Origin: Tubulanus polymorphus
Lineage: Eukaryota > Animalia > Nemertea
Direction: 5' to 3'
DNA length: 64,000 nt
NCBI RefSeq assembly: GCF_964204645.1
Contig: NC_134036.1
Span: forward strand, 7,726,812-7,790,811
Below the pieces are notes generated by a model. That model was not told where the DNA came from, made no database searches, and worked only from the letters and a program-made list of their open reading frames with translations. The position numbers were made by a program, and so were the translations under genes. This document shows positions 6,717 through 44,408 of this stretch, in pieces (within the stretch, counting starts at the first letter, position 1; the number at the start of each line of letters is the position of its first letter).

Positions 6717-7004
6717 GCCGCCGGGCTTGTCTTGCAGGGGCATTTCGAAAATGCACCTTTGTCCACCCTCCGTGGTTCTCCTTCAGTTTCGACTTTCGAT
6801 CCTCCTTTCGGGGTAAGGGGTTGATAGGAAATGCATTAGGCGCCTTAAATATAATGTGTTTCCTGTCAACCATTGAAGGAGAATTGGTGAGGCGTGGGTC
6901 ACAGGGGTGTAAGTAGAAATGCTTGGGGATAGGTATCTCGTGGCGCCTCTCAATAACGGGATGCTTATCCCCTAAAAACTCTGCGAGTCAAGTCGGGTGG
7001 TTTT
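6717..7004 (+). ncRNA. Structured RNA, element A allele
   Basis: Stems 6819-6838/6852-6871 and 6925-6941/6956-6972; closing helix 6717-6729/6989-7001; TATATAA at 6686 and TTTT at 7001. Confidence 0.75.
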
Positions 7005-22862: not shown

Positions 22863-22959
22863 AAGAATGCTTAAAATTAATAAGAGAAGAAAGAAAAGAG
22901 AATTAGATTATGAAAAGGATTCCAGCACGTTAATCAATTAAAAAAAAAAAATATTATAA

Positions 22960-23735: not shown

Positions 23736-23851
23736 AGATTAATATATCTCAAATCTTCAACTAGCTAGTATTTAAAATTCTTTTACTTCAAATGGCTAGT
23801 ATCATTTGAAGAATAAGTATATTATTTTTTCCGCTTTTTTTGCTAAAATAA

Positions 23852-24750: not shown

Positions 24751-24751
24751 A

Positions 24752-25866: not shown

Positions 25867-26487
25867 TGAATAAAGATTTATTTATATTTGAACCACATAA
25901 TATGTTAGTTACTGGAGTAACAAATTGTGGTAAAACACATTTTCTATTAGATTTATTAGAAACTATTTATAAAAATCATTTTGATAATATAATATTATTT
26001 TGCTACTTATTTTCCTACTTATTAAATGAATAAAACATATAATAAGGATATAGTTAAGATAAAAAAGTTTATTATATTAGATCCTAAAATAGTAAATGAA
26101 AATTTAGATAATTGTATTAAAATAGCAATTGATATTTACAAAGGAACAAATACATTATTCATTATAGATGATTGTGCAAATTTACATGATTCAAAATTTA
26201 GAGAAAGTGAGTTATGTTATTTAGCTTTCTCTGGGAGACATTTTGGGATAACAACTTGGTTTTTAAATCAAAAATATAATTCAATTGTTAAAGATTTTAG
26301 AGAGAATATTATATTCTTAGTTTTATTTTATAACTGAGATAGAAAATCAATGCAACAATCATTGGAAGAAAATCAAATTATACCTACTGAATTACATGAT
26401 GAATATATGAATAAATTAAAAAGTAATGAAGGTTCAAAATTATTACTGAGACTACAATTTCCCTATGAATATAAATTTATAAAATAA
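25866..26487 (+). pseudogene. Packaging ATPase pseudogene (element B)
   Basis: GVTNCGKT, LFIIDD, SGRH. Confidence 0.88.
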
Positions 26488-26711: not shown

Positions 26712-26807
26712 AACCTTTAAGCATTTATGTATTAGATACGTATTAGATACGTATTAGATACCTTAATACTTAAAATTTGAAATATTATAGAATTTTGAAT
26801 TGTGTAT

Positions 26808-26916
26808 GAATGGATGAGTGGATGAATTGGATGAATTGGAAGAATTGGATGACTCATCCATTCATCCTTTCATCCAATTCATCCATTCATCCATTCATCC
26901 AATTCATCCAATTCAT
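26808..26916. repeat. Fold-back microsatellite (GGATGAATT)n/(CATCCAATT)n
   Basis: Direct short repeats followed by their reverse complements. Confidence 0.7.
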
Positions 26917-27158
26917 TAGAAACAGCTGAAAATGACTAAAAAATGTTTCAATTATTGCCCACAACATAGCGTCGCCAGATTTCTGATTTAATGGTCCAAA
27001 AACTTATTCGATCGCATTTTTCTCGTTCATTATCTGGTAGATGAGAGCGGGTTAAACAATCGCGTAGCGATATGTCCGCATTGACATTGGCAGTAAAGAA
27101 TGGGGAACAGCCTCTTCTCAATAGAAAAACACAAAATTATGTACCTCCGGTTTATAAA

Positions 27159-27248
27159 AGTAATTAGAAGATGGCGTTTTCAGATCAGAGTACGAGAGTA
27201 CGAGACACCACTCATCATCACAAGTAATTTTTTTTCCTAATAAATGGG
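27159..27248 (+). repeat. Left terminal inverted repeat of element C (~90 bp)
   Basis: Reverse complement of 44319-44408 with ~2 mismatches; ends at the TAAATG start of the first ORF. Confidence 0.95.
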
Positions 27249-27570
27249 AGATAGAAAAGCATTCTTAGCAACAATAAATAACAGAATAAAACCAGCAAAA
27301 AAACAATTTGAAATAAAAAAGTTAGTTGATGTTACAAAAGAAATTGAACATAAAATATTGAAATTAGAAAAGATAAAAACTAAATATGGAGAGAAAGTAT
27401 CAGCTAATTTAAGCTACTGTAATGTTAGTACATCGCGAGAATTTAAAGTGTTTTTACCCGATAAATGGGTTTCATTGAGTACGGAGGAATTGAAAGATTT
27501 AGTAGGATTTGAAATAATATATCATGGGAAAAATGAAGACGGTCATCATGATTTAGAAATTGTTGATTGA
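27244..27570 (+). CDS. Hypothetical protein (108 aa), possibly OB-fold ssDNA-binding
   Basis: Intact in A and C and starts inside the TIR. The KTKYG...FKVFLP beta pattern suggests an OB fold (inference only). Confidence 0.7.
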   Translation: MGDRKAFLATINNRIKPAKKQFEIKKLVDVTKEIEHKILKLEKIKTKYGEKVSANLSYCNVSTSREFKVFLPDKWVSLSTEELKDLVGFEIIYHGKNEDGHHDLEIVD

Positions 27571-27910
27571 ATAAGAAATAAAAATAATGAATATCTAGAA
27601 TCCAAAATGACCTTAGTCGTTTTATAAACAACTATAATCATACAGTACATCTGTTACATATTATTATAAGAGAGTGCTTCATTTGAATATTGATCAATCA
27701 AACAGGTGTTGCACAACGTTGTTGTTATATAATAAGCACGTAGTACATACAACACACACAAGCCAGTTAGCCGGTATTGAATTACTGTGTTTTCATTAGT
27801 TGCTGAAAACGAGGTTTATTTAAATTAGCTCGGCCGTGACGACAGGAGGATAGTCATCATTCTCTCGTGATTAAAAGGAATATTTCAATGTTTTTACGGT
27901 AAGTTTTAGC

Positions 27911-28190
27911 AAAATTGCCCTATCCTCGACCTACAGAGTTTTCAGGGGATAAGCATCCCATTATTGAAAGGCGCCACGGGACGCTTATCCCCCGTCATTT
28001 CTACTTACACCCCCGGCGACCCACATCAACCGGGATCTCCTTCAATGATTGGTAGAAATCACATTATATTAAAGGCGCCTAATGTAATTTCTACCAATCT
28101 CGAAATTCGAAATCGAAGGAGAAACCCGGAGAGTGGACGAAGGTGCATTTTCAAAATGCCTCTGCTGGCCAGAGCTACTCCAGTGGTTGA
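27911..28190 (-). ncRNA. Predicted ~290-nt multibranch structured RNA with two GGCGCC-loop hairpins
   Basis: Uninterrupted 17-bp (27945-27992) and 20-bp (28047-28099) stems on the minus strand (G-U allowed); compensatory changes versus copy A; upstream TATATAA (28201-28207, minus strand). Confidence 0.75.
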
Positions 28191-28552
28191 ATGAATTGCC
28201 TTATATACTTAGCTAAAACACCTAAGTAAATGTTGTTGGTGCTAAAAAAATATGTGAAATTTGAAATTATAAATTATTCCGAATGAAAAGAATGTAAGAA
28301 TGAAAACTGATAAATGAATTATGTATTTTTAACTTAATTATGATATAATTTTTAATCAAATTAGTAATCAATTACTATGTTAATTGATTAACAAATTCAA
28401 ATTCAAATATTCAAATAAAAACAAAATAAATTAATAAAAATAATGAATATCTAGAATCCGAAATGACTTATCTGGACAATTTAATTGCTCCGCATAGATG
28501 GTGCCATAAACGGCACCCACACAGTGATAGACAAAAGTAGTGAGATATTCAA

Positions 28553-28948
28553 TTAATTTTTTTGCTTTTTTTCTAAAATATTAATCCATTTTTTTATTAT
28601 CAATTTTGGAATTTCAGAAGTATTTTCATTTTTGATAGCAGTTGGTTCAGAATTACTAATATCATGAATTTTATTTGATTTCTTATACCAATTACACCCA
28701 ATCAAAATGAATACAATTACAAATCCAACTTTAAAATATAAATATTTATCAAATATTCTACTATCAGAAGGAGTAGAAATAACAATATTTTCACCATTTT
28801 TATTAACATTTTTATTACTTATTTTTTCTTTTACAGCTTTTTTATATTCTTGTGATTTAATTCCTAATTGTCGAGACCATTCAATTTGTTTCTGAGTTCT
28901 CGGTTTTTTCTTCACAGTTAATTCCTTCACTTCTTTCACCTCGCTCAT
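28553..28948 (-). CDS. Basic single-pass membrane protein (131 aa)
   Basis: Lys-rich N-terminus, transmembrane YLYFKVGFVIVFILIGC; homologues in A and B. Confidence 0.75.
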   Translation of the reverse strand: MSEVKEVKELTVKKKPRTQKQIEWSRQLGIKSQEYKKAVKEKISNKNVNKNGENIVISTPSDSRIFDKYLYFKVGFVIVFILIGCNWYKKSNKIHDISNSEPTAIKNENTSEIPKLIIKKWINILEKKQKN

Positions 28949-29486
28949 TTATTATAGAAATATTTTTACTTTCAATATTTGAAAATGTTATAACCCCAGT
29001 TGATAATAATGTCATAAATCCACCTAATTGAAATGATAAATATCCAATCCATTTATTTAATTCAGTCATAACTAAATAATCATTTTTTAAATCGGAATAT
29101 AATCTATTTTCATCTTCAATTGGTAGTATATAATTACATAATTTACTATAACCTTTTACTACATTTTCTGATATCGCGTCATTAATTCTAGCTGTTCTCG
29201 CGGCTTCATAAATCTTAAATAATCTAATAATTTCATCTGATTTCATTGTATCTAATTCATTATAAGTTAAATTTTTACCGACAAAATTTTTACATTTTCC
29301 AGATGCTATTAATATTTCTAATTGATGTTTACAATAAAGATAATATTCATAATTATTATTTGTTGTAACATTATTTAAAGCACCATCATCTGGAGTTAAT
29401 TTTGTTTCTGTTATTCCTAAATCATCTAAAGTTTTTTCAATTGGAACATCACCATTTTTAGATTTTATTTTCTTTTCACCTACCAT
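28881..29486 (-). CDS. Hypothetical protein (201 aa) with C-terminal hydrophobic segment
   Basis: Homologues in A (fused) and B (23852-24390). Confidence 0.8.
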   Translation of the reverse strand: MVGEKKIKSKNGDVPIEKTLDDLGITETKLTPDDGALNNVTTNNNYEYYLYCKHQLEILIASGKCKNFVGKNLTYNELDTMKSDEIIRLFKIYEAARTARINDAISENVVKGYSKLCNYILPIEDENRLYSDLKNDYLVMTELNKWIGYLSFQLGGFMTLLSTGVITFSNIESKNISIINERGERSEGINCEEKTENSETN

Positions 29487-29514
29487 TTATATAACAAAAA
29501 AATTAATTGTGTGA

Positions 29515-29770
29515 TGTTGCAACTAGAATTTAACTAGAATGTAACTAGAATTCAACTAGATTAACAAGTTAGTTGAAATATTGTTGTTTGTGTTTATTTC
29601 TTGTTAAATCTAGTTGATTTTTGTTTCAACTACTAACAACTAGAATTCAACTAGAATGTAACTAGAATTAAAATAGATTAACAAGCTAGTTAAAATATTG
29701 TTAAATCTATTTGATTTTTGTTACAACTACCAATAACTAGAATTCAACTAGATTAACAAACTAATTGAAT
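29515..29770. repeat. Intergenic array of short CAACTAGA(A/T)T repeats in both orientations (~120-bp higher-order unit)
   Basis: Repeated aactagaat units plus inverted aatctagttg copies. Confidence 0.8.
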
Positions 29771-30379
29771 TTAAATAAATTCATATTTAAATGGGTGTTG
29801 TAATCTAAATAGTAATTTTGATCTTTTAATATTTTTCAACTCATCCATATATTCATTATGTAAATCATGTGGAATAATATCATTTTCCTCAAGTGCATTT
29901 TTCATTGATTTTCTATCTTTATTGTAGAATAAAACTAGAAATCTAATGTTTTCTCTAAAGTCTTTAACAATTGAATTATATTTTTGATTTAAAACCCAAG
30001 TTGTTATTCCAAAATGTCTCCCAGAGAAAGCTAAATAACATAACTCACTTTCTCTAACTTTTGAATCATGTAAATTTGCGCAATCATCTATGATAAATAA
30101 TGTATTTGATCCTTTATAAATATCAATTGCTATTTTTATACAATTATCTAAATTTTCTTTTACTGTTTTAGGATCTAATATAATAAATTTATTATTTCTA
30201 GTAATGTTTCTGTCATAAGTTTGATTAAATTCATATGTTGGACAAAATAATACTATATTATCAAAATAGTTTTCATAAACAGTTTCTAATAAATTTAATA
30301 TAAAATAAGTTTTTCCACAATTTGTTACACCAGAAATTAACATATTATGAGGCTCAAATATAAATAATTCCTTATTCAT
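29771..30379 (-). CDS. A32/FtsK-like genome packaging ATPase
   Basis: Walker A GVTNCGKT, Walker B LFIIDD, SGRH motif. Confidence 0.92.
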   Translation of the reverse strand: MNKELFIFEPHNMLISGVTNCGKTYFILNLLETVYENYFDNIVLFCPTYEFNQTYDRNITRNNKFIILDPKTVKENLDNCIKIAIDIYKGSNTLFIIDDCANLHDSKVRESELCYLAFSGRHFGITTWVLNQKYNSIVKDFRENIRFLVLFYNKDRKSMKNALEENDIIPHDLHNEYMDELKNIKRSKLLFRLQHPFKYEFI

Positions 30380-31507
30380 TTATATATTTTTAATTTTACT
30401 TGATAATATCCATTCATTGAATTTATCTGGCCATCCAACCCATTTTACTAAAGAATATTTTTTTCTTTTAATAGTTTTTGTTTTTAATACTTTTTCAATT
30501 TTATATTCTTGTTCTAGATTTTCAGTAGTTAAACTTAATTCTTCTTCGTAAAAGTAGCCATCAACTTCTTCACCATCTAAATCTTCTAATTTATAGACAT
30601 ATGGTTTTGTTGTTATTACCTTTTTTATTTTATATATTTCTCTAGTAAAATTTCGATCGTATCCTTTGTCAAATATCTTTTTATACTTAGAAATTCTAAC
30701 ATTTTGACCAACTTTAAATTTAGGTTCACCAAAATCATCTACAAGAAATGCTCCATATAAATTATTCCAAACAATTTCAGCATTTTCAGGTTTTCTAGCA
30801 TCAATAGGTTTCATTCCAATAGAAGAATGATAAGAATTATTATATCCTTCTATCAATTTTGGTAAAACATCAATCCATTTAAAAGTATTATTTGCTGTAA
30901 AATATTTCCACATTCTTGTTCTTAATGTTCTATTAAATCGTTCAACAACTGCTGCTTTTTTATCTGATTTTGTTGAAAAATATTTAATATTATGATTATC
31001 TAAGAGTTCATGAACAAGTGAATTATCAAATTCTTTTCCATCATCAAATTGTATTTTTTCTGGTTTTAGTTTATCATCCGAAAGAAATTTTCTTAAAACA
31101 TTTGATGTTTGTACAGCATCTTTTCTATAAAGTGGGAAGCTCCATACATAACGACTAAAAATATCAATTATATTCAATATCCACCAATAATCATTATTAT
31201 CTTTTTTAAGATTTTTCATATCAATTAAATCTCCTTGCCACTGTTGATCTACATAACTTACCATAGTTTTACGAGTTTTATATTTTCTAACAATTTTTTT
31301 ATGTGTTGTATATGTTGGTTGTTCTAACATAAATTCATTTATATCTTTATATTTAACTAAATTTTGTGGGATTATCTTATCTAATTTATCTTGTTTTACT
31401 TTACACCATATATTTTTGGTAGAACAATAAGCAACCGAACTCTCAGGGTTGTAATATAAATTTCTTAAATATTGTTCTTTAGTATTAGGAGTTTTTTTAC
31501 CACCCAT
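30380..31507 (-). CDS. int: Retroviral-like (rve) DDE integrase with C-terminal chromodomain
   Basis: WQGDLIDM, IQFDDGKEF, VERFNRTL; chromodomain YKIEKVL...LVKWVGWPDKFNEWI. Confidence 0.95.
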   Translation of the reverse strand: MGGKKTPNTKEQYLRNLYYNPESSVAYCSTKNIWCKVKQDKLDKIIPQNLVKYKDINEFMLEQPTYTTHKKIVRKYKTRKTMVSYVDQQWQGDLIDMKNLKKDNNDYWWILNIIDIFSRYVWSFPLYRKDAVQTSNVLRKFLSDDKLKPEKIQFDDGKEFDNSLVHELLDNHNIKYFSTKSDKKAAVVERFNRTLRTRMWKYFTANNTFKWIDVLPKLIEGYNNSYHSSIGMKPIDARKPENAEIVWNNLYGAFLVDDFGEPKFKVGQNVRISKYKKIFDKGYDRNFTREIYKIKKVITTKPYVYKLEDLDGEEVDGYFYEEELSLTTENLEQEYKIEKVLKTKTIKRKKYSLVKWVGWPDKFNEWILSSKIKNI

Positions 31508-31537
31508 TTATATATCCTTAATCTTAACTTTATATTT

Positions 31538-32784
31538 CTAATATTGAATACTATCTAATTGTGAATTTACAATATTTAATTGTGCGTCAGATATAATATA
31601 AATATGCATTTTAAAATTTTTGATTCCTTTATTCTTTTTCATGAATAATTGTATTCCATCTTTAGTGTTCTGTAGTTTTTTTCCAGAACCATGTAATGAA
31701 TTATCTTCTGTTGTTCTAAAATCTAACCATAATGCATATTTATTACCGGTATAATAATCAATTTGATTAATGTTACAATTTTCAGATGATTTTACTTTTT
31801 CATTCATAAAATGTTTTCTAATTTCTGGCCATTGATCAATCATTCTCATTCCTTGACAAAATATTTTATTCGCTATTCCTTCGATAGTTATTTCTACTTT
31901 TGTTATTTCAGGATTATAATAATTATCAACATTTATTGCACCATTAGAATATGTTGCAATAGTAAAAAATATTAATATACCTTTAATAGATCTTCTAGGA
32001 AAGTTAATATTCTCATTAATTATTTCATCATTTGCATTAATAGTTACAGTTTTAAATTTATCAATATAATCATATAATAATGAAAATCCTTGATTGTATT
32101 GAGTTTGAATTGTGCTAGCAATATTTTCATTAGTTACTGTGTTATATTCTAAACATATATTCGATAATTTATAACCCATATCTTTAACAACGCTAGATAA
32201 TACAATTTCATTTACAGGAGCAAATGTTATCTCAAATATAATATCTTCTTGAATTGCGTATTTATATAAAGGTGCATTATTATTTATCAATTCAAAGTCT
32301 AATGGAATTTTATATTTGCTTCCATAAATCTTTTTAATCAAATTATCTACACCATTATTTACTACTGCGTTATTGGCTTCAGATCTTAATTTATTTTGGT
32401 TTTCTGATTGAATTCCTTGAAATATCATATTATTTCTATTTTTTCAGTTAACCATAAATCTTTATAATGTGAAAATAAATTATAATCATCTAATGAGAAA
32501 ACTGTTTCTGGACCAATCTTTATTGTTAATTTTTTAATCAAATATCTCCCAACATTATCAACAACATAATTATTATTATTACCGATTACTTTTATATCAG
32601 CTGATAAATAAATACTATTTGGAACATAAAAAGTATTTTGTGTTAATCTAGGAATTCTAACATATAAAGTTTCATCGGGATTAATATTTGAAGGGTTATG
32701 AGTAATTATATGATGTGATCTTTCTGCTTTAATAGCATTAGATATTCTATGATTCTTCGAAGGACTTATATAACTCCCACTCAT
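31538..32784 (-). CDS. Putative double jelly-roll major capsid protein (~415 aa), split by a 1-nt deletion in an A-run at ~32440
   Basis: Beta-rich, MCP-sized and adjacent to integrase/ATPase. The degraded homologue at 46755-46800 reads WLTKENIKNMIFQG in one frame, showing the two ORFs are one gene. MCP identity is inferred. Confidence 0.65.
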
Positions 32785-32804
32785 TTATTTAACAAAAAAA
32801 TTAA

Positions 32805-34235
32805 TTATTTATTTTTGATAATGTTTACTAAACCAAAAATAATAGCACTTACAACTGTAATTAAAAATAAAATAATATGTTCAGCAGCAAAGTTAAGAAT
32901 ATTCCCAGCAGATTTCAATATAAAACCAACAATTGAAGCAATAACTCCTGGTAATGCTGCAGCAGATTTCTTTGATAGTTCCCATAAATATTTTGCTAAT
33001 TTCTTTAAACCATCTTTAACTTTATCTTGTATAGAATTATTACCTGGAGGTTTATCTGGTTTATTTGGAGTAGGAGTAGATTTTAAAGCATTTGATATTG
33101 CTAAACCAATTGTTGTAAATAACATAGTTACAGCTGTTAGAATTGAAAGAACTGTTATTCCTTCAAACTTAAATAATAATCTTATTCTATCTTTCAATGA
33201 TATTTCAGAATTTGGTTTAATCAACAAATCTTTAAAAATAACTTTTAATCTATTAATATTATAATCATATGATTTTAATAATAATTTAATTTCTTCTTTC
33301 TGTACTTCTAAATTATCTTTTAAATTACTAATTTCTTTTTCTAAACGTAATTCTTTTTGCCTATATTCTATTTCATCAATTACTTGATGATCTAAATCAG
33401 ACTTTAATTGTTCTATTTCTTTATTTTTATCAGTTAATTTTTTTTCCAAATACATAATTTTTTGATCTCCTATACTTTTATTATGTGCAATTTTATCAGA
33501 TGCAAGTCTTATACTAATAATTTCTCTAATTGCTTTATCAGAAAATATATCTAAATCTTTTAATTCTTGATCTGTTGCATCAAATAATCCATTCGGTAAA
33601 AGTTTTTCAATTGGAACTTTATTTGATCTAAGTTTACTATTTTTGGAAGTTATATTCTGTTCAGAAGTTGTTTCTGTTTCTGATTTCTTTTTGATTATTT
33701 CAAATAATTCATTAATTCTTTGTTTAAATACATCTATATTATCATCTATTTCTTTTTGTGTAACATCAGTTATTTCATTACTATTACTTATTATTTTAAT
33801 TCTAAATGTTTCTAAATTTCTCAAAGTTGATTCTGATAATATTTTATTTTTATTATTTTTATAAGTGATATCAATATAATAATCACCTTTCAAACGATAA
33901 TAACATTTACCATTATCTAAAAATTTCAATTGATCTGCTAAAAGTCCAACGTCTTCATCATTTATGTTAAAATTAGATTTTTCAATTAAATATTCTAATT
34001 TAGGTATTTTGTTTAAATTATCTAAATCTTGTTTTACTAAATCTGGGTCTAAATTTTCAGGATTTAATTGTGATTCAGCATTTTTAATATAATCAGGCAT
34101 ATTTAAATTATTGTTATATTCTGGTTCATTACCATCATTAAAACTTGTTTCATCAAAATCAGGTGGTTGTTCATCAGTTATGTTAGGTTCATCAAAAGGA
34201 TCCATTCCAATATCTTCTCCACCTTCTACATCCAT
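32805..34235 (-). CDS. Coiled-coil protein (476 aa) with C-terminal hydrophobic helices
   Basis: Acidic N-terminus, heptad region, 2-3 hydrophobic segments; degraded homologues at ~8540-9672, 47140-48010 and 60725-61300. Confidence 0.8.
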   Translation of the reverse strand: MDVEGGEDIGMDPFDEPNITDEQPPDFDETSFNDGNEPEYNNNLNMPDYIKNAESQLNPENLDPDLVKQDLDNLNKIPKLEYLIEKSNFNINDEDVGLLADQLKFLDNGKCYYRLKGDYYIDITYKNNKNKILSESTLRNLETFRIKIISNSNEITDVTQKEIDDNIDVFKQRINELFEIIKKKSETETTSEQNITSKNSKLRSNKVPIEKLLPNGLFDATDQELKDLDIFSDKAIREIISIRLASDKIAHNKSIGDQKIMYLEKKLTDKNKEIEQLKSDLDHQVIDEIEYRQKELRLEKEISNLKDNLEVQKEEIKLLLKSYDYNINRLKVIFKDLLIKPNSEISLKDRIRLLFKFEGITVLSILTAVTMLFTTIGLAISNALKSTPTPNKPDKPPGNNSIQDKVKDGLKKLAKYLWELSKKSAAALPGVIASIVGFILKSAGNILNFAAEHIILFLITVVSAIIFGLVNIIKNK

Positions 34236-35565
34236 TTACATAATAAAAAAAATAAAATTTAAAATATAATATTCCTCCGATTACAATTCCTATACAAGTT
34301 ATAGCTAATTTAGTATTTTCATGGGATTTATTATCATCATTTAGTTTAATTATATCATGTTGAATTTTATCGGTTTTAATATCACCGTGTGGGTGCCGTA
34401 CGGCATCATTTTCTGTTGTATTGTAATCATTATTTAATTTAATATTCTTAGTTTTAGTTTCAGTTGATTGAATGTCTTTTTTATTTTTTTCACCTTCCAT
34501 TAATTTTGGAGCAGTAATAATCTTTTTATTTATATCATTTAATCCAATTGAATTATTCATTGTTGCAGTTTTAATTAGATTATTATAACCAATTATATTT
34601 CCCATCTTTAATACTAAATCATTAGAAATAATTAATAGATTAGGTCCTATACAATAATTTAATCTAATATGTGATTTATCTAAATAATTTTGATATCTTA
34701 CAATGTTTTCTGGAATCGATCTATTTTTATCATTATGAATGGAATCTTCAAATAATACTTTGAATTGTTTCTGCGCATCAAATGAAGTACTATTATTTCC
34801 AACTATTGGTGATCTTGTTTCAACTTGTGCACCTAAAATACATATCAAATAAGTTCTAATTGATTGATTTATTCTTTGTATACCGGGTTTTGTAAATCCT
34901 TCACTATAAGATTCAATAAAATAAACCCAACCATTATTATTATTAATTTCATAATTATGATAAGCTCCAATTCTATGCATATAATCAATTCTTTTTATTT
35001 CATACTGTTCACCGACACCTTGCAATTTACCATGCGCTCTAAAATCGAAATTAATATTTATATTAAATTCATTACATATTTTATAAAACTTAGATAGATT
35101 AATATTATTATCTAATTCTTTAAAATATTTTGATCCAGGTAAAGGGCATTCTAATTCATTTAATATAATTCTAATTTGAAAGTATACATGAAATCTAAAT
35201 ATTGTATGAATAAATTTTAAATCAGAATATTTCAAATTTTTATCTAAGTTATTCAAGTGATCATTGCAACTTATACCACAACCAGTTGTTGCACAATAAA
35301 CAGCAAAATTTAATTGGTTCTGCCAATATTTCATATTAGATTTTACTTTATATATATGATATTCATCTCGAGTAAAAGTAACTTCATATGTATTTAATAT
35401 ATTTTCCATTTTAGAAATAAAAAACTGTGATTCAGTAACATAAATTTCTAAATTAGTTAATGAATTTAAAACTACATTTTTATATGTAATATTTTTCTTA
35501 AAATCTATTGCCGGAATATTATATTTAATTGATTTATTATATTGGAAAGCTTTTGGAAACCCCAT
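34192..35565 (-). CDS. Hypothetical protein (457 aa) with C-terminal transmembrane anchor
   Basis: Long ORF with TAAATG start, WQNQLNFAVYCATTGCG motif and C-terminal LAITCIGIVIGGILYF. Confidence 0.75.
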   Translation of the reverse strand: MGFPKAFQYNKSIKYNIPAIDFKKNITYKNVVLNSLTNLEIYVTESQFFISKMENILNTYEVTFTRDEYHIYKVKSNMKYWQNQLNFAVYCATTGCGISCNDHLNNLDKNLKYSDLKFIHTIFRFHVYFQIRIILNELECPLPGSKYFKELDNNINLSKFYKICNEFNININFDFRAHGKLQGVGEQYEIKRIDYMHRIGAYHNYEINNNNGWVYFIESYSEGFTKPGIQRINQSIRTYLICILGAQVETRSPIVGNNSTSFDAQKQFKVLFEDSIHNDKNRSIPENIVRYQNYLDKSHIRLNYCIGPNLLIISNDLVLKMGNIIGYNNLIKTATMNNSIGLNDINKKIITAPKLMEGEKNKKDIQSTETKTKNIKLNNDYNTTENDAVRHPHGDIKTDKIQHDIIKLNDDNKSHENTKLAITCIGIVIGGILYFKFYFFYYVNGCRRWRRYWNGSF

Positions 35566-35581
35566 TTATATAACTAAAAAA

Positions 35582-36016
35582 TTAATAATTTATTAATTCT
35601 TTTAATAATTTATCTTGTTCTTCAACTGTTATATGGCCATTTAAACTTATTATATAATCTAGTGTGTTCTTTAATTTATTAATTTCTTTTATATTAGATT
35701 TTATTTTTTCTTTATTACTTTTTATATTTAATTTTGAACTTATACCAGTTAAAACACTTGAACTTAATCCTAATACACCAATTGATATAGCTAAAGGTGT
35801 TAATGGACTGAATATTGCTAAAAATGTTATTACAGAACTAATTGTAACCGAACCACTTATAATCAAATAATATATAATTTTACTTTTTAAATATTTTTTC
35901 TTTTTTATCTTTAAGTCACTTTCAAATTCTAATATTTGTTTTTCTAAATATGTTTTTAATTTAGTTTTATTTATATCATGAGGAATAATATCAATACTAT
36001 CAACTTTATCTTCCAT
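35582..36016 (-). CDS. Putative membrane protein (144 aa) with hydrophobic hairpin
   Basis: ~45-aa hydrophobic stretch flanked by Lys-rich coiled coils; 5' half also present in copy A. Confidence 0.75.
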   Translation of the reverse strand: MEDKVDSIDIIPHDINKTKLKTYLEKQILEFESDLKIKKKKYLKSKIIYYLIISGSVTISSVITFLAIFSPLTPLAISIGVLGLSSSVLTGISSKLNIKSNKEKIKSNIKEINKLKNTLDYIISLNGHITVEEQDKLLKELINY

Positions 36017-36035
36017 TTATTTAGAATAAAAATTA

Positions 36036-36458
36036 CTAATTAGTAAATTTATAAGCAACAAATATAACAATAACTGTTCCACCTAAAATCCATATTATTT
36101 CATATTTCTGTTGTTCTTTACTTGGGGTATAATAATCTGATAATTTAGGTTTGTATAGATGTAATTTTTCTTTATTTGTTACCGCGTTATATAAACTCAT
36201 TGCATCATCAACTGATTGAAAATCTCTATGTGAAATCTTCTGATCATATAATTCTTTATTGATGTAATCCATATAGTTTTGCCTCTTTTCTCTATATTCT
36301 TCTGCAGCTTTATTGTATTTCTCTAACGCTAAGTTATGTCTTCTTTGTTCTCCTAATGAACTATTTTTATCAATATGTTTAAATAAATAACCACCACCAG
36401 TAAATGCTAAAACGTTAACAATTGCCGATCCTATAATAGTTATAATTGCAGAAGCCAT
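36036..36458 (-). CDS. Putative membrane/structural protein (140 aa)
   Basis: N- and C-terminal hydrophobic helices around EQRRHN plus coiled coil; conserved in copy A. Confidence 0.75.
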   Translation of the reverse strand: MASAIITIIGSAIVNVLAFTGGGYLFKHIDKNSSLGEQRRHNLALEKYNKAAEEYREKRQNYMDYINKELYDQKISHRDFQSVDDAMSLYNAVTNKEKLHLYKPKLSDYYTPSKEQQKYEIIWILGGTVIVIFVAYKFTN

Positions 36459-36482
36459 TTATTTAGCAAAAAAATTATGCAT

Positions 36483-36704
36483 TTATATGGGAGGAATATA
36501 TTTTTGTTTTTCTAAATAATCAATAGTTAAATTAGATAAAGTAACTGCTAATGTTAACTTTAAAATATCATTTATATCAAATCTATCAACATTAACACTT
36601 CCCATTTTGAATACTTTTTTTAATACCATTGAATAACCAACCGTTCCAACTGATAGTAATGCGCCATTATATAATCCAGTTATTATCCACTTATCATCAC
36701 TCAT
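36483..36704 (-). CDS. Small putative membrane protein (73 aa)
   Basis: Two hydrophobic segments; conserved in copy A (4505-4726). Confidence 0.75.
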   Translation of the reverse strand: MSDDKWIITGLYNGALLSVGTVGYSMVLKKVFKMGSVNVDRFDINDILKLTLAVTLSNLTIDYLEKQKYIPPI

Positions 36705-37061
36705 TTATTTATCAAAAAAATTACTATCTTCAAAATATTTAGTTATCTTAGTGATGATTAATTCAACATTTATTTCATTACTAGTTTCATTTGTATATAT
36801 TTCAATTATTATTTTTTTAATATCATCGATGATAAAATCTTCATCTAATTCATAAAGTCTTAAAGATTCTCTAATTAAATTAGTAATCTTTTCTACATTT
36901 AAAGTTTCTTTATCTATTGTTGTTTCATACTCAAATGTTGTTTCATTAGAAAATACAATATTTTTGATATGTGTTATTACATCATTAATGTTAAATTTCA
37001 TTTCTTTTTCACGTTTAAAATCAAACCCAAAACATATACTCGGTCCAACAGTTATATTCAT
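36705..37061 (-). CDS. Hypothetical acidic protein (118 aa)
   Basis: Intact and near-identical in copy A (4148-4504); TAAATG start. Confidence 0.75.
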   Translation of the reverse strand: MNITVGPSICFGFDFKREKEMKFNINDVITHIKNIVFSNETTFEYETTIDKETLNVEKITNLIRESLRLYELDEDFIIDDIKKIIIEIYTNETSNEINVELIITKITKYFEDSNFFDK

Positions 37062-37077
37062 TTATATAGGTGAAAAA

Positions 37078-37875
37078 TTACTCTTTACATCTTATAACTA
37101 ATTCATAAATTACAGGAAAGTTATTCAAATCAATTAAATAACCATTATGATTTCTTATTTCTAATTTAAAATTATTGAAATGTGGAATACAAGGTTTAAA
37201 ATCACATTCAGCTAAATTATAATTTATTTGCGTTCCAAATTGTTTAACATTCTTCAATGGTAAAATGTTTAATATACTAGAATTACATGTTGTATCTTTA
37301 GTTGCTTCGAATGTTTTTGTAGGATCGATTAAATTGCAATAAATATAAAAGTGTGTAAAAGGTATTATATTTGAGTTACCGTGTTTGTTTCCACCAAATT
37401 GATTTGGAGTAATTCCTAATAGTTTAGCTATAGGTTTTTTTACCGTGTAAGTATGTATTCTTGTCATCAATGGATTAGATTTATCAAGTTTAATAAGTTC
37501 ATCATCAAGCTTTATTTTAATTTTATTAGAGCTCTCACTTTTTATGAATTTAATATTAAATTTAGAATTACCATTACCTAATCTAATCCGAGCTTTTCTA
37601 TTAATTTCTTGCTCTAATGTTTCTAAATCATATAATCCTGGTGTAAGCATAAGTTGAATCCATTTTTTTTCAAGTTTATCAAAAATAAGAAGGCTTCTAT
37701 GTTCATCAGTTTTATCCGATATATTATAAAAAGAATTACATAAACTTATATTTACTAATTTTAAATCTACACAATTCTTAAATTCTCTATCTAATTGTAC
37801 TAATAAATTATGAGATTTATAATTTATAAGTTTTCTAGAATCAACAAATATTCTGTATTCTTTTAATTCTACCAT
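37078..37875 (-). CDS. Putative minor capsid protein (penton, single jelly-roll)
   Basis: Pattern typical of Polinton/virophage pentons: IFVDSR, PGLY, FYIYCNLID, ILNILP, LEIRNHNGYLIDLNN..V..EL. Confidence 0.8.
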   Translation of the reverse strand: MVELKEYRIFVDSRKLINYKSHNLLVQLDREFKNCVDLKLVNISLCNSFYNISDKTDEHRSLLIFDKLEKKWIQLMLTPGLYDLETLEQEINRKARIRLGNGNSKFNIKFIKSESSNKIKIKLDDELIKLDKSNPLMTRIHTYTVKKPIAKLLGITPNQFGGNKHGNSNIIPFTHFYIYCNLIDPTKTFEATKDTTCNSSILNILPLKNVKQFGTQINYNLAECDFKPCIPHFNNFKLEIRNHNGYLIDLNNFPVIYELVIRCKE

Positions 37876-37943
37876 TATTTATAACATAAAAAAATTACCG
37901 CTCATCACTAAAAATTAATTTTAATAAAATTTTTCCTTAATAA

Positions 37944-39260
37944 ATGGATGAGAAGATAGCATGCGAAATTTGTCGTGAACTTCTAAGAAAAAGTAATATG
38001 GCTCGACATATGAAAAAACATGATGAAAATTATAAACCCCCTAAAATAAACTGTCAAAATTGTAATAAAACATTCTCTAGAAATTATTTCAAAAAACATT
38101 CAGAGAAGTGTAAAAATAATAACTTAATAGTTAATGTTGACAGTAACGAAAGTAATAATAATTCTGTTGAAGTTGAACCTGAAATTATTTGGAAAAGACC
38201 TTTCTTATTCTATGATAAGGATAATATAAAAGATCATTTCTGTGAGCCTTGTCGAATAAAATATAACCCTGAAAATATAGAAGATTGGGAGAATCATCAA
38301 TTTCGTAAAGTACATATAGATAAAATTTCTAATAAATTTGAAACTGAATTTAATGAAAGAAAAGATAATTTATTTAAAAAAATAAAATATGAGAAAACGT
38401 TACCAGATAATGAAGAAACAGTTGAAAAGTTAGAAAAACAATATAATGAATTAACAAGAAAAACATATTATTGTAAATATTGTAAATTGATTATTACAAC
38501 AAGTAATTCAAATCTACATAATAGAACAATAAAACATAAAGAAAACGTAAGAAAATACCAAGAGCTTAATGAAGATCTATTACCAGTAAATTATAAACAA
38601 AAATGTCCACGATGTATTTATGCGACCTTAAGGCAAGAAGGTACTGTGTTATTTTGTGTTGATTGTGGATGGCAAAGGAATTTATGGGGTGAAGAAAAAA
38701 CTAGAAATTTTCTTATAGAACCAAAATTAAATTATCTTGATGAAATTTTTAAAATATTTTCTATAGAAGATCATACACCAGAATATATGCAATGGCTTTA
38801 AAAAATGAAAATAATAGAAAATAAAAATGGTGAAATAACTAAAAAAGATATTATAAAAACAATTATTCCACCAACATTTAACACAAAACAAAAGAAAATG
38901 TATTTATATTTATTATTTAATGATTATTATGAAAAACCTAAATTAACAGAAGAAGATATGGAAAATATAAAAAAAATATTTAAACAAATATTAATGTATC
39001 ATTTGGAAAATAGAATAACAGATTCAATAAATTATGAATTCTTTTTAAATAAGATTGTAAATTATTTAAACCTAGATATTATAATTCCATTTGATGAATT
39101 AACAAACAAAAAGAAACAAAGAGTGCGAGATGAAATGTGGAACAAGATAGAACTTTATTTAAATGAGAAAAATGGAATGGAAGAAGAACCTAAACAATTA
39201 AATGAAAATGAAGAAGCCAATAGTGATTTCGAGTATGATGATATTGATTTTATGTTTTAA
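37944..39260 (+). pseudogene. Multi-zinc-finger protein (~438 codons) interrupted by one nonsense codon at 38799-38801
   Basis: Several CxxC...H motifs; copy A reads WLEKMK across the position that is TAA here. Confidence 0.75.
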
Positions 39261-42200
39261 TGGCCATAAGGTAATGTTTTTATACCATCATCTGAAATAT
39301 GCCTTTTATCATCAAATGGATTTAAACTAGTTTTTTCAACTTCATTAATGTACATCTCATGATCTTCTGATCTTAAACAATTCATCTTGTGTTTCATTAC
39401 AATTGATTTATATAAACACTTTATATAATCTTGAAATTCTATATGTTTATCAACCACATGTTTTGTTATTCCTTTTAACTTTTTAGCTTCATGATCTTTT
39501 GTTCTGTAACTATACATTTTACTTCTTATCCCAACAAATTCAATCATTTCATCACCTCCTAATTCATCTTTAAATTTACCAGGAATCTTTTTATTATCAT
39601 TACTAAATAGTTCATGATCTTTAGGATAATTGCTAAAATCAAAATGATGTTTTAATGTTTTTAAGTCTTTTGTTATATCATTTGTCTTGATTTTTAGTAT
39701 GTAGGCGTCAGTATTTTTTTGGATTAATGGGAACCCAGAATTGAATGTTCCATCATCTGTTGATAAATCATAAACATAGTCAGTTGGGTTATATATTTCA
39801 AATAAATCTTTAACTTCTTCTGTTAATTCTTTTTCTACATGCCTTAAATTAAAACAATTTGGTTTAGATTTAATTAATTCTATATTCATATTAAATCCTA
39901 ATGAACTGCATAATATATTCAATCCTGATATAGCAACTTTTCCTTTTTGAGCAAAGGATATTGTTTTGCGGTTTTGGAACCTTTTTGAACCATCTGCGGC
40001 ATAGAATCCAATGAAGAACCACTTTCTTAAATTATTTTTTGCATTCAATACATAATCTGGAACTATCTTTTCTTTTGTTGAAGTATTACTTTTCACTATT
40101 GCATGAATATAGAATTCATCATTATATTTTGTAGCAAAATCTTTAGGATTATTCACATGTATTCTATAACATTGCGATGATTTCATAACATCTATGATTT
40201 TGAATGTTTTATTTGGATAAACTTCTTCACAGAATTTCTTAATTCTTTCTAATAATTTTAAGTCTTGATTGCATAAATACCAACAATATTTAGTTCCACT
40301 AACATAATTATACACACCTGCTGAACCATCACCCATGAAAAATCCTTTAATAAAATATTCTTTTTCTTCCAATGTTTCAGGTTCTATATTATAAATATTA
40401 TTAATTATTTCATCAAATGACATATGATTCATTCTTGGGAAAAATCTTTTATGTAATAATTCATCTCCAATTTTTATATCAGTTGGTTTTATTTCATCAC
40501 CATTTCGTTTAATTAAACTATGATCTTCTGTAACATCTACAAATCCTAATTTAGTTCTAACTCTATAGATTTTCTTATTTGTTTTATGTCTAATAATATT
40601 CTTTAATTTTTTCCATCCATTTCTTGTCCAAACATCTATTAAACCATTTATTTGTATTAATTCTTTTTCTCCATATGAAATATAACATTCATTTTGTTTT
40701 GGAATTATTTCTGAAATTCTTCTTACCAATATTTTATTATTACATTTTAATAATATTGGGGTGTCAGCCATTACAGAATCAAAATATAATATTTCTATAT
40801 GTTTTTCCCCAAAAAGTGGTTGTAAAACATTATAATAGAATTCATACATCAATAGCTTTGAAATTTCTAAAACGGTTGAACCTATAAATATTGGTTTATT
40901 AAATTTCATGGACGTTCTTTTTAATTTTACCGCGGTTAAATAATCTTCAAACCTTTTATTTCCTAAATGTCTAGGACTTGATTGTAAATGTCTTAATCTT
41001 TCAGAATTATTTACTAATTCAATATCATTTCTATTTCTAATATTTTCACATGTTTTACCATAAAAACTATTATTCATTAATTTAAAGAAATCTTTTTCAA
41101 AATCTGTTTTTGATATGGTTCTCTGTTGAGTATTGAAATCTATATATTTTTCTAACCACTTCGATTGATTAAATTCAATATATCTATGTACTTTCTTTAA
41201 TTTCATTCCTTGTTTTAGATAAAATTTTAACATTCTATAATGAACAATATAATTGTATTTATTATTTTGAGTAAGTATTAATTTTTCTGTAAAAACATGA
41301 TCTTTCGGTTTTATTTTCTTCTGGTATTCACTTAAATAACTATCATCTACAGTTAAATGTTCTGGGCAATAAGGTAAGTTTCTTGTTTTAAACTTTATAT
41401 TTTCAGGATATTCTAAATCAACTACAAAGAAATAACCAATTGGTGCTTCATCTTTTAAACTAATAATTGCGCTTTCCCAATCAGTTTTATCACCATTTTC
41501 AACTTCTGTTAATATAAAATTTTTATATGGTTGAGGTTGCATCATTGCCCAACCATATAAATTATTGGCGTCAATATATAATAATTTATATTCATCATTT
41601 GCTTTAAAATACCTATCTCCCATAACACCACTAATTCCACCTCTAATTGATTTTTCAAATAATAAAACCATATCTGGTTCTTTTAATAAATCTAATTCTA
41701 CATTTGTATATTTTAAACCACATTGCCAGGTTAAACCAGGACTAGAGTAGCAATAACAAGGATCAACATTAAAATGATTCAAATTAACTTCTCTAAATTT
41801 TTCAAATATGTCAGCCAATATCATAACATCTGATTTTAAATATAAATCAACTAATTCACCATGATTTTTCATCTTAAAATGGTTCCAAATATTTAATGTT
41901 CTATTAAACACTTCATCTTTCACATACTCCTCTTTTAATTTATCATAAAATTGATCTTTTAATAATTTGGTTTCTTTGAAATCATCATGTGTTTTATAAA
42001 ATGAATAAGGAATTGCGCCTTTATATCTTAATAATTTAAAATCTTGGTCATTTGGATAATAATATCGAGTTATAACAAAATCATTATCAACTAAACTTTT
42101 TGATAAATTATCTAATGAACATGCTAGAAATCTATAAGAATCTAAAAATCTAATGCAACCAAATTGAAATGAAATATAATTTTCAGATGTTTTAGCTAAT

Positions 42201-43492
42201 AGTTTAAAATCATATTTTCTTACATTTACACCATTCATAGCATTATATTCTTCTATTTCTTGATTAATTGTACCCAATTTCTTTGATAATTGTTTTATAA
42301 ATAGATGGGTATCATAACCCGATAAATTATGAAATAATATTGGTACAAAATTTACTTTTTTAGCTTGTAAATTGCAATCTTCATGAGCAGCTCCACGATA
42401 TTTTGAATTTAAATGATTATGATCTCTAACTTTTTTATCAAATGAATAAAAACGTTTTTCACAATAACAACAATGAGTTGCATAATTAAAATCAATTTCA
42501 TCTTCTTTTGTCATAACTATTCTTTTATTTTTGTTTAATAATTTTGCAAAATCACTTTCTAATTCAATCATTTTATCACAAAAATCATTAACTACATTTT
42601 CACCTCTAAAAGAAATATATTGACTTTCATATAATTCGGGATAATTTGATTTTATATAAATTCCATAAGCAGCAGCTCTTTGATGAACTTTTTTAATTGT
42701 ATTTATAATTGGTGGGTCTTGAATTATATCTTCATTTAATTCACTTCCTTTATCCATTGATTTTAATAATTGTTTTTTGTTATATATTTCTTTTCTATCT
42801 TGATCAGTTAATTCTTTATTCAACGATTCAAAATCCCCATAAATTACAAATGGAACAATATTTTTAAATTTATGATTAGTAAATTTCAATTTATAATCTT
42901 TTTCTGTTGGCATTATTAATTTACAAAAATCTTTATTATCACATAATTCTTTATGTTTTAATAATGTATTCTCAGTTCTAAATTTAGATAAACATTTTCT
43001 ACATAGATAAATTTTATGGCTGTTAAAATCACTTTCTGTTCTAAAGAATAAATCAATTTGTTTTAACCACATATAATGTTCATTTTCATCTTTTTTGTAA
43101 TATAACAAATCTATAGCATTTTCATCATCATAATATTCTGTTAAATATAAAGCTTCCAATGTATAATCTTTAATATTTTCACCTTTTGTCTTTGGTAATT
43201 GCATTAATTCGAATACATTTATTTTTAAATTATTAATTTTTTCAATTTTAGGAATCATTTTTATAGTTACTGGATATTGATCAATTTTATATAATGTTTC
43301 ATATTTCCGATAATCTGTTATTCTACAAACATTTTCCTGTGTTGGATGTAAGCAACTAATAATTGACCATAGAAAACATTTATTATCTTCATTTTGAACA
43401 TTTATTACTGCTTTTGTTGTAAACGGTAATTTGATATAACTTGATGCTTTCATATCTTTTTCTGTTATAAAGTTTGAATCATTTTTAAACAT
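39257..43492 (-). CDS. polB: Protein-primed family B DNA polymerase with vOTU-like and EndoVII/HNH-like domains and an intein
   Basis: Motifs YGDFES (ExoI), FHNLSGYD (ExoII), YIDANNLYG (motif A), KLMNNSFYGK (motif B), YFD|TD (motif C, split by intein). N-terminal INVQNEDNKCFLW...HY is vOTU-like; CCYC...VRDHNH...YRGAAHEDCN is an EndoVII-like insert. Confidence 0.96.
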   Translation of the reverse strand: MFKNDSNFITEKDMKASSYIKLPFTTKAVINVQNEDNKCFLWSIISCLHPTQENVCRITDYRKYETLYKIDQYPVTIKMIPKIEKINNLKINVFELMQLPKTKGENIKDYTLEALYLTEYYDDENAIDLLYYKKDENEHYMWLKQIDLFFRTESDFNSHKIYLCRKCLSKFRTENTLLKHKELCDNKDFCKLIMPTEKDYKLKFTNHKFKNIVPFVIYGDFESLNKELTDQDRKEIYNKKQLLKSMDKGSELNEDIIQDPPIINTIKKVHQRAAAYGIYIKSNYPELYESQYISFRGENVVNDFCDKMIELESDFAKLLNKNKRIVMTKEDEIDFNYATHCCYCEKRFYSFDKKVRDHNHLNSKYRGAAHEDCNLQAKKVNFVPILFHNLSGYDTHLFIKQLSKKLGTINQEIEEYNAMNGVNVRKYDFKLLAKTSENYISFQFGCIRFLDSYRFLACSLDNLSKSLVDNDFVITRYYYPNDQDFKLLRYKGAIPYSFYKTHDDFKETKLLKDQFYDKLKEEYVKDEVFNRTLNIWNHFKMKNHGELVDLYLKSDVMILADIFEKFREVNLNHFNVDPCYCYSSPGLTWQCGLKYTNVELDLLKEPDMVLLFEKSIRGGISGVMGDRYFKANDEYKLLYIDANNLYGWAMMQPQPYKNFILTEVENGDKTDWESAIISLKDEAPIGYFFVVDLEYPENIKFKTRNLPYCPEHLTVDDSYLSEYQKKIKPKDHVFTEKLILTQNNKYNYIVHYRMLKFYLKQGMKLKKVHRYIEFNQSKWLEKYIDFNTQQRTISKTDFEKDFFKLMNNSFYGKTCENIRNRNDIELVNNSERLRHLQSSPRHLGNKRFEDYLTAVKLKRTSMKFNKPIFIGSTVLEISKLLMYEFYYNVLQPLFGEKHIEILYFDSVMADTPILLKCNNKILVRRISEIIPKQNECYISYGEKELIQINGLIDVWTRNGWKKLKNIIRHKTNKKIYRVRTKLGFVDVTEDHSLIKRNGDEIKPTDIKIGDELLHKRFFPRMNHMSFDEIINNIYNIEPETLEEKEYFIKGFFMGDGSAGVYNYVSGTKYCWYLCNQDLKLLERIKKFCEEVYPNKTFKIIDVMKSSQCYRIHVNNPKDFATKYNDEFYIHAIVKSNTSTKEKIVPDYVLNAKNNLRKWFFIGFYAADGSKRFQNRKTISFAQKGKVAISGLNILCSSLGFNMNIELIKSKPNCFNLRHVEKELTEEVKDLFEIYNPTDYVYDLSTDDGTFNSGFPLIQKNTDAYILKIKTNDITKDLKTLKHHFDFSNYPKDHELFSNDNKKIPGKFKDELGGDEMIEFVGIRSKMYSYRTKDHEAKKLKGITKHVVDKHIEFQDYIKCLYKSIVMKHKMNCLRSEDHEMYINEVEKTSLNPFDDKRHISDDGIKTLPYGH
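39713..40777 (-). mobile_element. Intein with LAGLIDADG homing endonuclease (355 aa) in pPolB motif C
   Basis: Block A SVMADTPILL, block B VTEDH, endonuclease blocks FIKGFFMGDGS and FFIGFYAADGS, block F YVYDLST, C-terminal KN followed by Thr. Removal restores YFDTD. Absent at the same site in element B. Confidence 0.95.
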
Positions 43493-44323
43493 TTTATTAC
43501 TTTTTGATGTTTTATTCCTTTTTGTATTATAAACATTTAAATCTAAATATATAATTCATCCAATGTTAAGCCAGAACCCTCAAAATATCTTTCTTCAATA
43601 TGACGTTTAAATTCATTTAATATTTTTTCTAACTTCTCTTTTATTTGTGTTTTTGAAATTATTTCTTCAGAGTGTGTTTGAATATTATAATTCATTTTTT
43701 CTTCTGACTTTATAAAACTTACTTTCCCAGAGATACTAATTTTTGGATATTCAACATCTGTTATCAAATCTAGTATTTTTTCTATTATTTCATTAAATTT
43801 ACTATAATCTTCTATTGTTGTACCTTTAAAGAATCTAAATATAATAGCTGCAGGACCAATTTTACTATGTAATGTTTCTAAGATTTCAATTGTATCTTTT
43901 ATTTCTAGTGAATCAATATAATTTCTAACATTTTCCATGTAAGGTTTATTTGAAATGGATTTAGTTTTTGAAGTTGATTCTTTTACTTTTTGAGGTTTAT
44001 TATCAAAATAATCTTCTCCTAAAACATTATTACTCAAATTTTGATGGTGTTTTTGTGATTCGAGATGTCTATTATAATTCCTTTTTACTATAAATTCATT
44101 ACAAACTTCACATTTTATTTCATCCACATTCATATTTTCTAATCGTTCTTTTCTTTCATTGGAATTTTTCTGGAGTTTCAAAATCTATAACATTTTTTAT
44201 ATGATTTGAAGATTTTTCATGTTTAGATTTATTAGATTTATCGATGTATTTTTTACAATATTGACAATAATATTGATTTTTATTGACATTATTGTTTTCT
44301 AGTTGCTGTTCATTCTCCCCCAT
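43493..44323 (-). pseudogene. N-terminal extension of pPolB (two C2H2-like zinc fingers plus probable terminal-protein region), split by two 1-nt frameshifts
   Basis: ATG at 44323 (MGENEQ...YYCQYCKK...H...H). Frameshift ~44180 leads into ORF 43543-44181 (CEVC...H...H; EGSG); frameshift ~43550 leads into the main ORF. The homologous region of element B (19750-19810) reads through as EGSGLIFDEIIFMTLHVYN. Confidence 0.8.
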
Positions 44324-44408
44324 TTATTAGGGAAAAAAATTACTTGTGGTGATGAGTGGTGTCTCGTACTCTCGTACTCTGATCTGAAAACGCCATCTTC
44401 TAATTACT
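44319..44408 (-). repeat. Right terminal inverted repeat of element C (~90 bp)
   Basis: Matches left TIR; ends ...TAATTACT followed by TSD TATAAA; contains the pPolB start codon (44323). Confidence 0.95.

Follow-up and report, generated by a model that had tools for sequence, protein, structure and literature searches.

Results

A complete Polinton/Maverick and its neighbours

The 64-kb stretch of Tubulanus polymorphus DNA analysed here (the window) is AT-rich and carries a cluster of Polinton/Maverick elements, one of which, copy C, is complete. Its outline, with the two genes that flank the RNA island, is as follows.

27159..44408, no strand assigned: complete Polinton/Maverick, copy C, 17,250 bp, with TIRs, TSD and genes
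27159-27261 and 44304-44408: TIRs of copy C, about 103 bp, 93% identity
27153-27158 and 44409-44414: TATAAA target-site duplication (TSD) of copy C, 6 bp
27244..27570, plus strand: ORF108, convergent neighbour between TIR and RNA island, no Pfam family
28553..28948, minus strand: ORF131, upstream same-strand neighbour of the RNA, ending 377 nt ahead of the predicted start of the RNA

The host element is a Polinton/Maverick, because it combines TIRs and a 6-bp TSD with genes for a protein-primed polymerase (pPolB), an integrase and an A32 ATPase. Pfam profiles match the protein-primed PolB (PF03175, E 9e-19), the rve integrase (PF00665, E 6e-10) and the A32/FtsK ATPase (PF04665, E 3e-13); the integrase carries a chromodomain and counts ribbon worm and fish among its named relatives, and a VLTF3-like protein is also encoded. 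The capsid gene is split into two ORFs, the first of which matches Capsid_N weakly (E 0.009), and the predicted single-sequence fold of an intact capsid relative is too uncertain to use (pLDDT 34). Copy C also encodes a likely penton. Among the atlas look-alikes of ORF265 is a cluster of virophage minor capsid proteins, which we treat as a lead. No protease was matched among the 17 ORFs of copy C in a Pfam profile search. Polinton hallmark genes as found in copy C are named in PMC8502044. ORF108 has two database relatives, one of them P0135; its atlas look-alikes are mostly from arthropods, and the nearest named atlas cluster is the phi29 single-strand-binding protein (score 0.88, 44% of members), a weak lead.

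Copy A is an internally deleted Polinton at 1-7768, inverted relative to copy C. The two are 88-94% identical in their main blocks, and C 29453-35823 is absent from A. In both, pPolB (C 39257-43492, minus strand) contains an intein with a LAGLIDADG domain at residues ~920-1260; it is absent at the same place from the PolB of the 19848-22847 element and from that of a related locus in metagenome contigs (L004). Three imperfect repeats of ~97-117 bp lie at 29475-29785, between the ATPase gene and ORF201. Four more decayed Polinton pieces (8400-11115, 19235-26481, 46470-47911 and 60736-61518) belong to other families or subfamilies with a different gene order. Outside the Polintons there are strong fold-backs at 26776-26925, 50476-50625 and 61876-62025, about equally stable on both strands and probably small inverted-repeat elements, and a tRNA-derived SINE-like repeat at 45075-45230 (A box 45088, B box 45149).

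An island of high divergence with defined ends

Between ORF131 and ORF108 lies an island that occurs once per element, outside the TIR and 750-1,050 nt from one end. It is predicted to encode a small RNA.

27911..28176, minus strand: predicted small RNA of copy C, 266 nt, start placed 31 nt after the TATA start
6717..7004, plus strand: second RNA copy, in copy A, 288 nt, with one extra hairpin at the upper junction
28201..28207, minus strand: TATATAA box at -31, identical in copy A (6686-6692)
27911..27914, minus strand: T4 run that follows the terminal helix, the predicted terminator for Pol III

The coordinates and strands are those of an earlier note on this DNA, whose C is the minus strand of 27911-28207 and whose A is the plus-strand copy at 6686-7004. 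The note had also spoken of a ~290-nt unit: this length suits copy A (288 nt) but not copy C, which measures 266 nt from the predicted start, the quoted range having taken in the TATA box.

Copies A and C differ at 55 of 263 sites of the island (20.9%), compared to 4/237 in the upstream and 12/307 in the downstream flank, so that alignment of the copies bears out the proposal that the island diverges more than its surroundings (21% vs 2-4%). The limits are sharp. Identity is 98% as far as the 31st nt past TATATAA, exactly; the copies then differ at 21% of sites as far as the T4 run, beyond which identity returns to 96%. Since the divergence starts at TATA+31 and stops at T4, the diverged island corresponds to the predicted transcript. 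A terminal helix joins both RNA ends in each copy, with sequences that differ (GCUCU/AGGGC in C, GCCGCC/GGUGGU in A).

The first 202 residues of the likely penton (37078-37875 in C vs 3365-4128 in A) are only 63% identical between the copies, compared to 87-98% for most other genes. Judged by its sequence, the likely penton is a second variable module between A and C. A 35-bp direct repeat (97%) at 27577-27611 and 28433-28467 brackets an 856-bp block that includes the RNA and could mark cassette borders; in one related Polinton (L001), DNA at 1024-1123, between two other genes, is similar to the stretch beside the second copy of this repeat. In both copies the unit is framed by two inverted occurrences of an 8-bp word, GTTTTAGC (28212-28219, minus strand; 27903-27910, plus strand), one directly preceding the TATA box and the other overlapping the T4 end.

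A protein-coding role was considered and rejected: each copy holds a 94-codon open antisense frame, but indels shift the two into different registers.

Base pairing is maintained on one strand

The island folds far better than expected, and more so on one strand, with z-scores in copy C of -10.1 for the minus and -6.3 for the plus strand, and in copy A of -10.3 for the plus and -3.8 for the minus strand. The main elements of the fold in copy C are these.

28047..28099, minus strand: hairpin 1, a 20-bp stem with a 13-nt GGCGCC loop (28079-28067)
27945..27992, minus strand: hairpin 2, a 17-bp stem (19 bp in C) with a 14-nt GGCGCC loop (27975-27962)
28148..28152, minus strand: GAAAA, 5' strand of the invariant internal loop, 0/9 loop positions differing
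28002..28005, minus strand: AGUA, 3' strand of the same internal loop, 0/9 loop positions differing

In six core helices all 68 of 68 pairs hold in both copies: 53 are unchanged, 10 are changed on one side and 5 on both. The 10 one-sided changes are swaps between Watson-Crick and G-U pairs, and none gives A-C. The individual stems behave as had been described from the first comparison. The 20-bp stem (28099-28080 with 28066-28047) has 14 unchanged pairs, 4 double changes, 2 one-sided changes to G-U and 0 broken pairs; the 17-bp stem is uninterrupted in both copies, with 5 one-sided and 0 double changes; and the enclosing helices hold, TCTCCTTC/GAAGGAGA being invariant and the GCACC helix carrying one double change. 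Helix positions changed in 20 of 136 cases and loop positions in 2 of 27 (copies A vs C).

Because the core structure had been chosen using both copies, each copy was also folded alone, which allows an unbiased test in which the fold of a single copy is scored on its counterpart. Here 4/83 pairs were broken where the null mean was 12.0 (P about 1e-5); in the reciprocal comparison 5/83 were broken, the null mean being 16.4 (0/100,000 draws); 7 double changes were kept, with about 1.6 expected (P about 1e-4). The broken pairs sit at the edges of junctions and halfway along the long arm, whose middle (alignment columns 57-71) shows no pair-for-pair conservation. A shuffle control on the core-pair count is weak with two sequences, 18 of 500 shuffles reaching the observed value, and the covariation rests on two full sequences only, too few for an R-scape-type test.

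Which strand, and which nucleic acid, does the pairing serve? Across the core of the two copies there are 18 non-Watson-Crick cells, all of them G-U and none A-C. This wobble asymmetry favours one RNA strand, minus in C and plus in A, as first proposed, and together with an RNA-type internal-loop motif it upholds the preference for RNA over a DNA cruciform. Cruciform formation or quasi-palindrome correction was rejected on a further ground: it would erase G-T mismatches, yet 8-10 persist per copy. We consider it very probable that the stretch works as RNA on the predicted strand.

The island is unannotated, as had been stated, and an Rfam search of the 64-kb window returned 0 matches at gathering score. 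Two chance-level matches were obtained within 27600-28500 (E 2.2 and 3.6), and none was relevant at E up to 5.

Twin palindromic loops and an invariant internal loop

All four loops, of both hairpins in both copies, begin with GGCGCCT and end with AATA, exactly as the earlier note had it. GGCGCC occurs 5 times in 64 kb, 4 of these in the hairpin loops, with 0.6 occurrences expected from base composition. Both hairpins thus expose a GC-rich 6-nt palindrome in the loop, a DIS-type feature. The loop hexamers are predicted to be unpaired with a probability of at least 0.9, their only GGCGCC partners within either RNA are the two loops, and the hexamer duplex is worth -11.7 kcal/mol. GGCGCC is implicated in the dimerisation of MMTV RNA (PMC4264320). 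Joint alignment of the four hairpins as one family was unsuccessful, the two stems being alike in their loops only.

The geometry permits a contact within one molecule. In A as in C, the 5' strand of the central arm counts 47 nt and the two hairpins measure 20 and 17 bp; by simple arithmetic, a folded-back hairpin 1, a 6-bp kiss and hairpin 2 span 43-45 bp (20+6+17 to 19). This span is close to the 47-nt arm, and therefore the loops could meet within one molecule. We think it likely that the GGCGCC loops kiss, most simply inside one molecule; as both loops are identical, swapped dimers or chains would also be possible. Loop covariation is uninformative on kissing because the palindrome is invariant.

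The 5x4 internal loop, GAAAA opposite AGUA, is identical in A and C. In order and flanking pair we take the AGUA/GAA loop to fit the sarcin-ricin/loop-E motif consensus; a literature search found no paper stating that consensus.

A putative upstream promoter and terminator

Two further features, both on the minus strand, bear on transcription.

28238..28242, minus strand: GCACC at -66, putative PSE by its position, with a weak sequence match
28153..28156, minus strand: internal T4 at +21 in C (TTTC in A), located in a helix, where Pol III might stop prematurely

According to PMC7279448 and PMC1790723, a type 3 Pol III gene has a TATA near -30, a PSE near -50/-60 and a run of at least four T. 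The island has the TATA near -30 and the terminal T4 run. The arrangement of TATATAA 31 nt upstream and TTTT directly after the closing helix had been reported for copy A; it is present there, but it is not specific to A, the TATA box being identical in C. No A or B box was found on either strand of either copy by a search with consensus patterns, and the same patterns detect both boxes in the host repeat at 45088/45149. These features suggest, with a reasonable though lesser likelihood than the loop contact, that Pol III transcribes the RNA from an upstream TATA/PSE promoter. A T4 earlier in the unit is found nowhere in A and once in C, at +21; it counts against Pol III, which would have to read past it, though such read-through varies with context (PMC7279448, PMC1790723). 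The internal T4 is shared by the common C-like haplotype, and one sequencing-run record (X1 record 8) differs from C at one other site only.

A SINE insertion was rejected, with neither A/B boxes nor an A-tail present. Just after the terminator, CTTACCGTAA at 27894-27903 (minus strand) resembles the vertebrate U6 PSE; downstream of CTTACCGTAA there was no fold signal for a second RNA (z -1.3 to +1.0 across 27571-27970).

The claim of a virus-encoded structured non-coding RNA is thus sustained by the Polinton host, the one-strand wobbles, the RNA-type internal loop and a promoter/terminator spacing that fits Pol III.

Other copies and related Polintons

The stretch is present in four sequencing runs of one organism and one study, which may include the window's own source; no RNA run is among those listed for it. 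The analysis covered runs X1, X2, X3 and X5, the last an RNA run that gave 0 records and so speaks neither way on expression. The contigs of run X1 sort into one class resembling A, at depth 1,649, one resembling C, at 919, and minor ones at 34-58, depth here not being copy number. Two paired sites separate the common C-like contig of this run from copy C, and each becomes G-U when paired by hand. One minor contig (depth 42 of about 2,600) has 8 listed long-stem changes, of which 5 keep pairing and 3 appear to break it; the listing, paired by hand, covers 24/33 changes and 1/6 gaps, and the partner of one broken pair lies below the listing threshold. This contig counts against strict conservation of pairing; it may represent a decayed lineage. 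In run X3, a loose end at 28152 shows a variant in which the 5' strand of the GCACC helix departs considerably from the other copies and looks like the 3' strand of the A type; it may be a further lineage or an assembly artefact.

Protein-anchored searches recovered 8 related Polinton loci (L001-L008) in metagenome contigs, with 53-69% identity in ORF201, and 0 loci in viral and genome contigs. Sequence patterns gave 0, 1 and 0 matches in viral contigs, the single match lying in unrelated coding-like DNA, and 10 matches in genome contigs, all of which had at most 2 bp beneath a loop. The eight loci (38 kb, with the termini mostly outside it) contained no similar sequence, no palindrome-loop hairpin of at least 12 bp and no covariance-model match; with the window's other Polinton families added (102,290 bases in all), sequence, hairpin and covariance-model searches likewise gave no match to the RNA. 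In L001 a deoxynucleoside kinase gene follows ORF131 in place of the RNA. Because neither these loci nor the window's other families gave a match, the RNA looks, at the sequence level, like a family-specific cassette.

The excess divergence of the island may reflect escape from sequence-specific silencing or exchange of the cassette. Fast divergence need not mean an arms race, and exchange of modules among older lineages may explain it; we favour exchange as at least part of the cause, because the likely penton shows a similar excess.

Discussion

A putative decoy RNA and how it may work

Searches of the mostly open-access literature on Polintons, Mavericks and adintoviruses, main texts only, found no description of this RNA and no element-specific functional non-coding RNA in Polintons. 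We therefore regard it as a new, virus-encoded small structured RNA that is neither a VA RNA nor an EBER by membership and that, by analogy, probably works like one.

What could such an RNA do? In the explanation that we prefer, host RNA polymerase III would transcribe the cassette into an RNA of 266-288 nt. This RNA would close on itself, hairpin 1 folding back along the central arm to reach hairpin 2, so that the GGCGCC loop of one pairs with that of the other. The kiss would hide both hairpin tips and yield a rigid, closed bundle of short G-U-rich helices, which proteins could bind but which would be a poor substrate for cutting, and the bundle would act as a decoy for host double-stranded-RNA sensors or RNA-silencing proteins. 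The sequence of the helices would be free to turn over, with helix length, loops and the AGUA/GAA motif held, a pattern that fits a structure recognised by shape. The decoy reading was chosen because VA RNAs, viral RNAs of like kind that Pol III transcribes, inhibit PKR and are loaded onto Dicer (PMC4378190). A VA-like decoy is our best functional guess. The whole chain, from the Polinton cassette through a Pol III RNA closed by its loops to a VA-RNA-like decoy, is put forward tentatively, at a little under an even chance, and the choice of decoy function over another trans role more tentatively still.

Alternative explanations

The loops might instead pair between molecules, making the RNA a self-assembling scaffold whose rings, chains or condensate concentrate viral proteins at a replication or assembly site, or a pRNA-like packaging aid. 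Two identical self-complementary loops permit open-ended polymerisation, the stability computed for the hexamer duplex speaks for it, and fixed helix lengths suit a ruler or scaffold; the arm lengths, however, fit an internal kiss. The packaging ATPase, moreover, is of the A32/FtsK type, which is not known to use an RNA cofactor, and no such RNA was seen in relatives whose ATPases are 75-81% identical, within the stretches compared (the 38 kb of L001-L008, termini mostly outside, and the window's other families). These two points make the pRNA-like packaging role raised in the earlier note unlikely, and a scaffold in general is improbable. We hold in the same low regard a broader version, in which the small RNA would self-assemble via its twin palindromic loops into closed frames, rings or a gel and serve as a multivalent silencing-protein sponge or assembly scaffold, its cassette being swapped between Polinton lineages and its helices turning over to escape sequence-specific silencing.

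Slightly less probable is a cis-acting element in a longer Pol II transcript, either the ORF131 mRNA extended at its 3' end or a viral transcript started from the TATA box, with a part in stability, localisation or dimerisation. The island is on the same strand as ORF201 and ORF131; between the ORF131 stop and the island the minus strand has no AATAAA and only two ATTAAA, the first AATAAA coming at 27820, past the island; and the internal T4 in C would be irrelevant to Pol II. Against this, the limits of divergence match TATA+31 and T4, the ends pair as in a free-standing RNA, and what comes after ORF131 in relatives is other genes, with no structure of this kind.

Could the structure act as single-stranded DNA, in strand-displacement replication or excision? 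G-T wobbles are strand-asymmetric too, the Polinton polymerase is protein-primed, and the island's distance from one element end would suit such a role. The same strand also folds better as DNA (-60/-61 vs -52/-45 kcal/mol). We nevertheless consider this quite unlikely: the island is at one end only, outside the TIR, and absent from the relatives in the stretches compared, and 15-19 G-U pairs per copy, the AGUA/GAA motif, the TATA spacing and T4 are features of RNA.

Less likely again is that the long helices are processed into small silencing RNAs, miRNA or siRNA, with the transcript as their precursor. The helices are long and near-perfect, and viral Pol III pre-miRNAs exist (PMC4378190), but here the arms change and the loops are held, the reverse of a miRNA, and the stems are only 17-20 bp. 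That the RNA is a captured, fast-evolving host RNA (7SK-, SRP- or telomerase-RNA-like) with little current role is hardly credible, for all that its size and type-3-like promoter resemble such host genes, given the Rfam result, a CCCTAA run that is present in A and missing from C, and pairing maintained within the element family.

Relation to known RNAs

Polintons are distant kin of adenoviruses (PMC4378190, PMC8502044). Like adenovirus VA RNA I/II and the EBERs of EBV, the RNA described here would come from a dsDNA virus and be small and extensively base-paired, its two ends pairing with each other and its 3' terminus being oligo-U (predicted here). VA RNAs and EBERs are about 160 nt, however, in contrast to 266-288 nt here, and our RNA has an upstream TATA instead of A/B boxes, carries twin palindromic loops that they do not have, and shows no sequence or Rfam similarity to either family.

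With phi29 it shares the setting of a phage-like pPolB replicon and two RNA loops able to join molecules. The loops of phi29 pRNA, which join molecules, are complementary to each other and not palindromic; here, in contrast, the motor is of the A32/FtsK type and the RNA was not found in the related elements compared, whose sequences mostly stop short of the termini. The lysine riboswitch combines a loop-E/G-bulge helix with intramolecular kissing loops, and the architecture predicted here is similar in having an AGUA/GAA motif in a long helix and two hairpin loops able to meet, but it has no ligand-binding core, no expression platform and no Rfam match, and belongs to a eukaryotic virus. A G-bulge motif is attributed to the lysine riboswitch in PMC12510878.

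Retroviral dimerisation hairpins (HIV-1 DIS; the MMTV PBS palindrome GGCGCC) likewise expose a GC-rich 6-nt palindrome in a loop (PMC4264320). Unlike these, our case has two identical loops in one small RNA of a DNA virus, not in a genomic RNA, and its palindrome lies at the 5' edge of 13-14-nt loops. Protist Polinton-like viruses carry non-coding RNAs of known classes inside Polinton-type elements (tRNA, rRNA, group I introns, snRNA, snoRNA and miRNA; PMC12220804); the present RNA, though similarly placed, matches none of those classes.

The RNA bears on the question of what allows Polintons to survive in the germlines of animals that defend themselves by piRNA and RNAi, and because its ends, strand and tertiary contacts are all predicted for one discrete molecule, that question becomes experimentally testable. 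If our interpretation is true, VA-RNA-like biology would extend to relatives of adenoviruses that integrate, and the few known self-associating RNAs would be joined by a natural example that kisses through twin palindromes.
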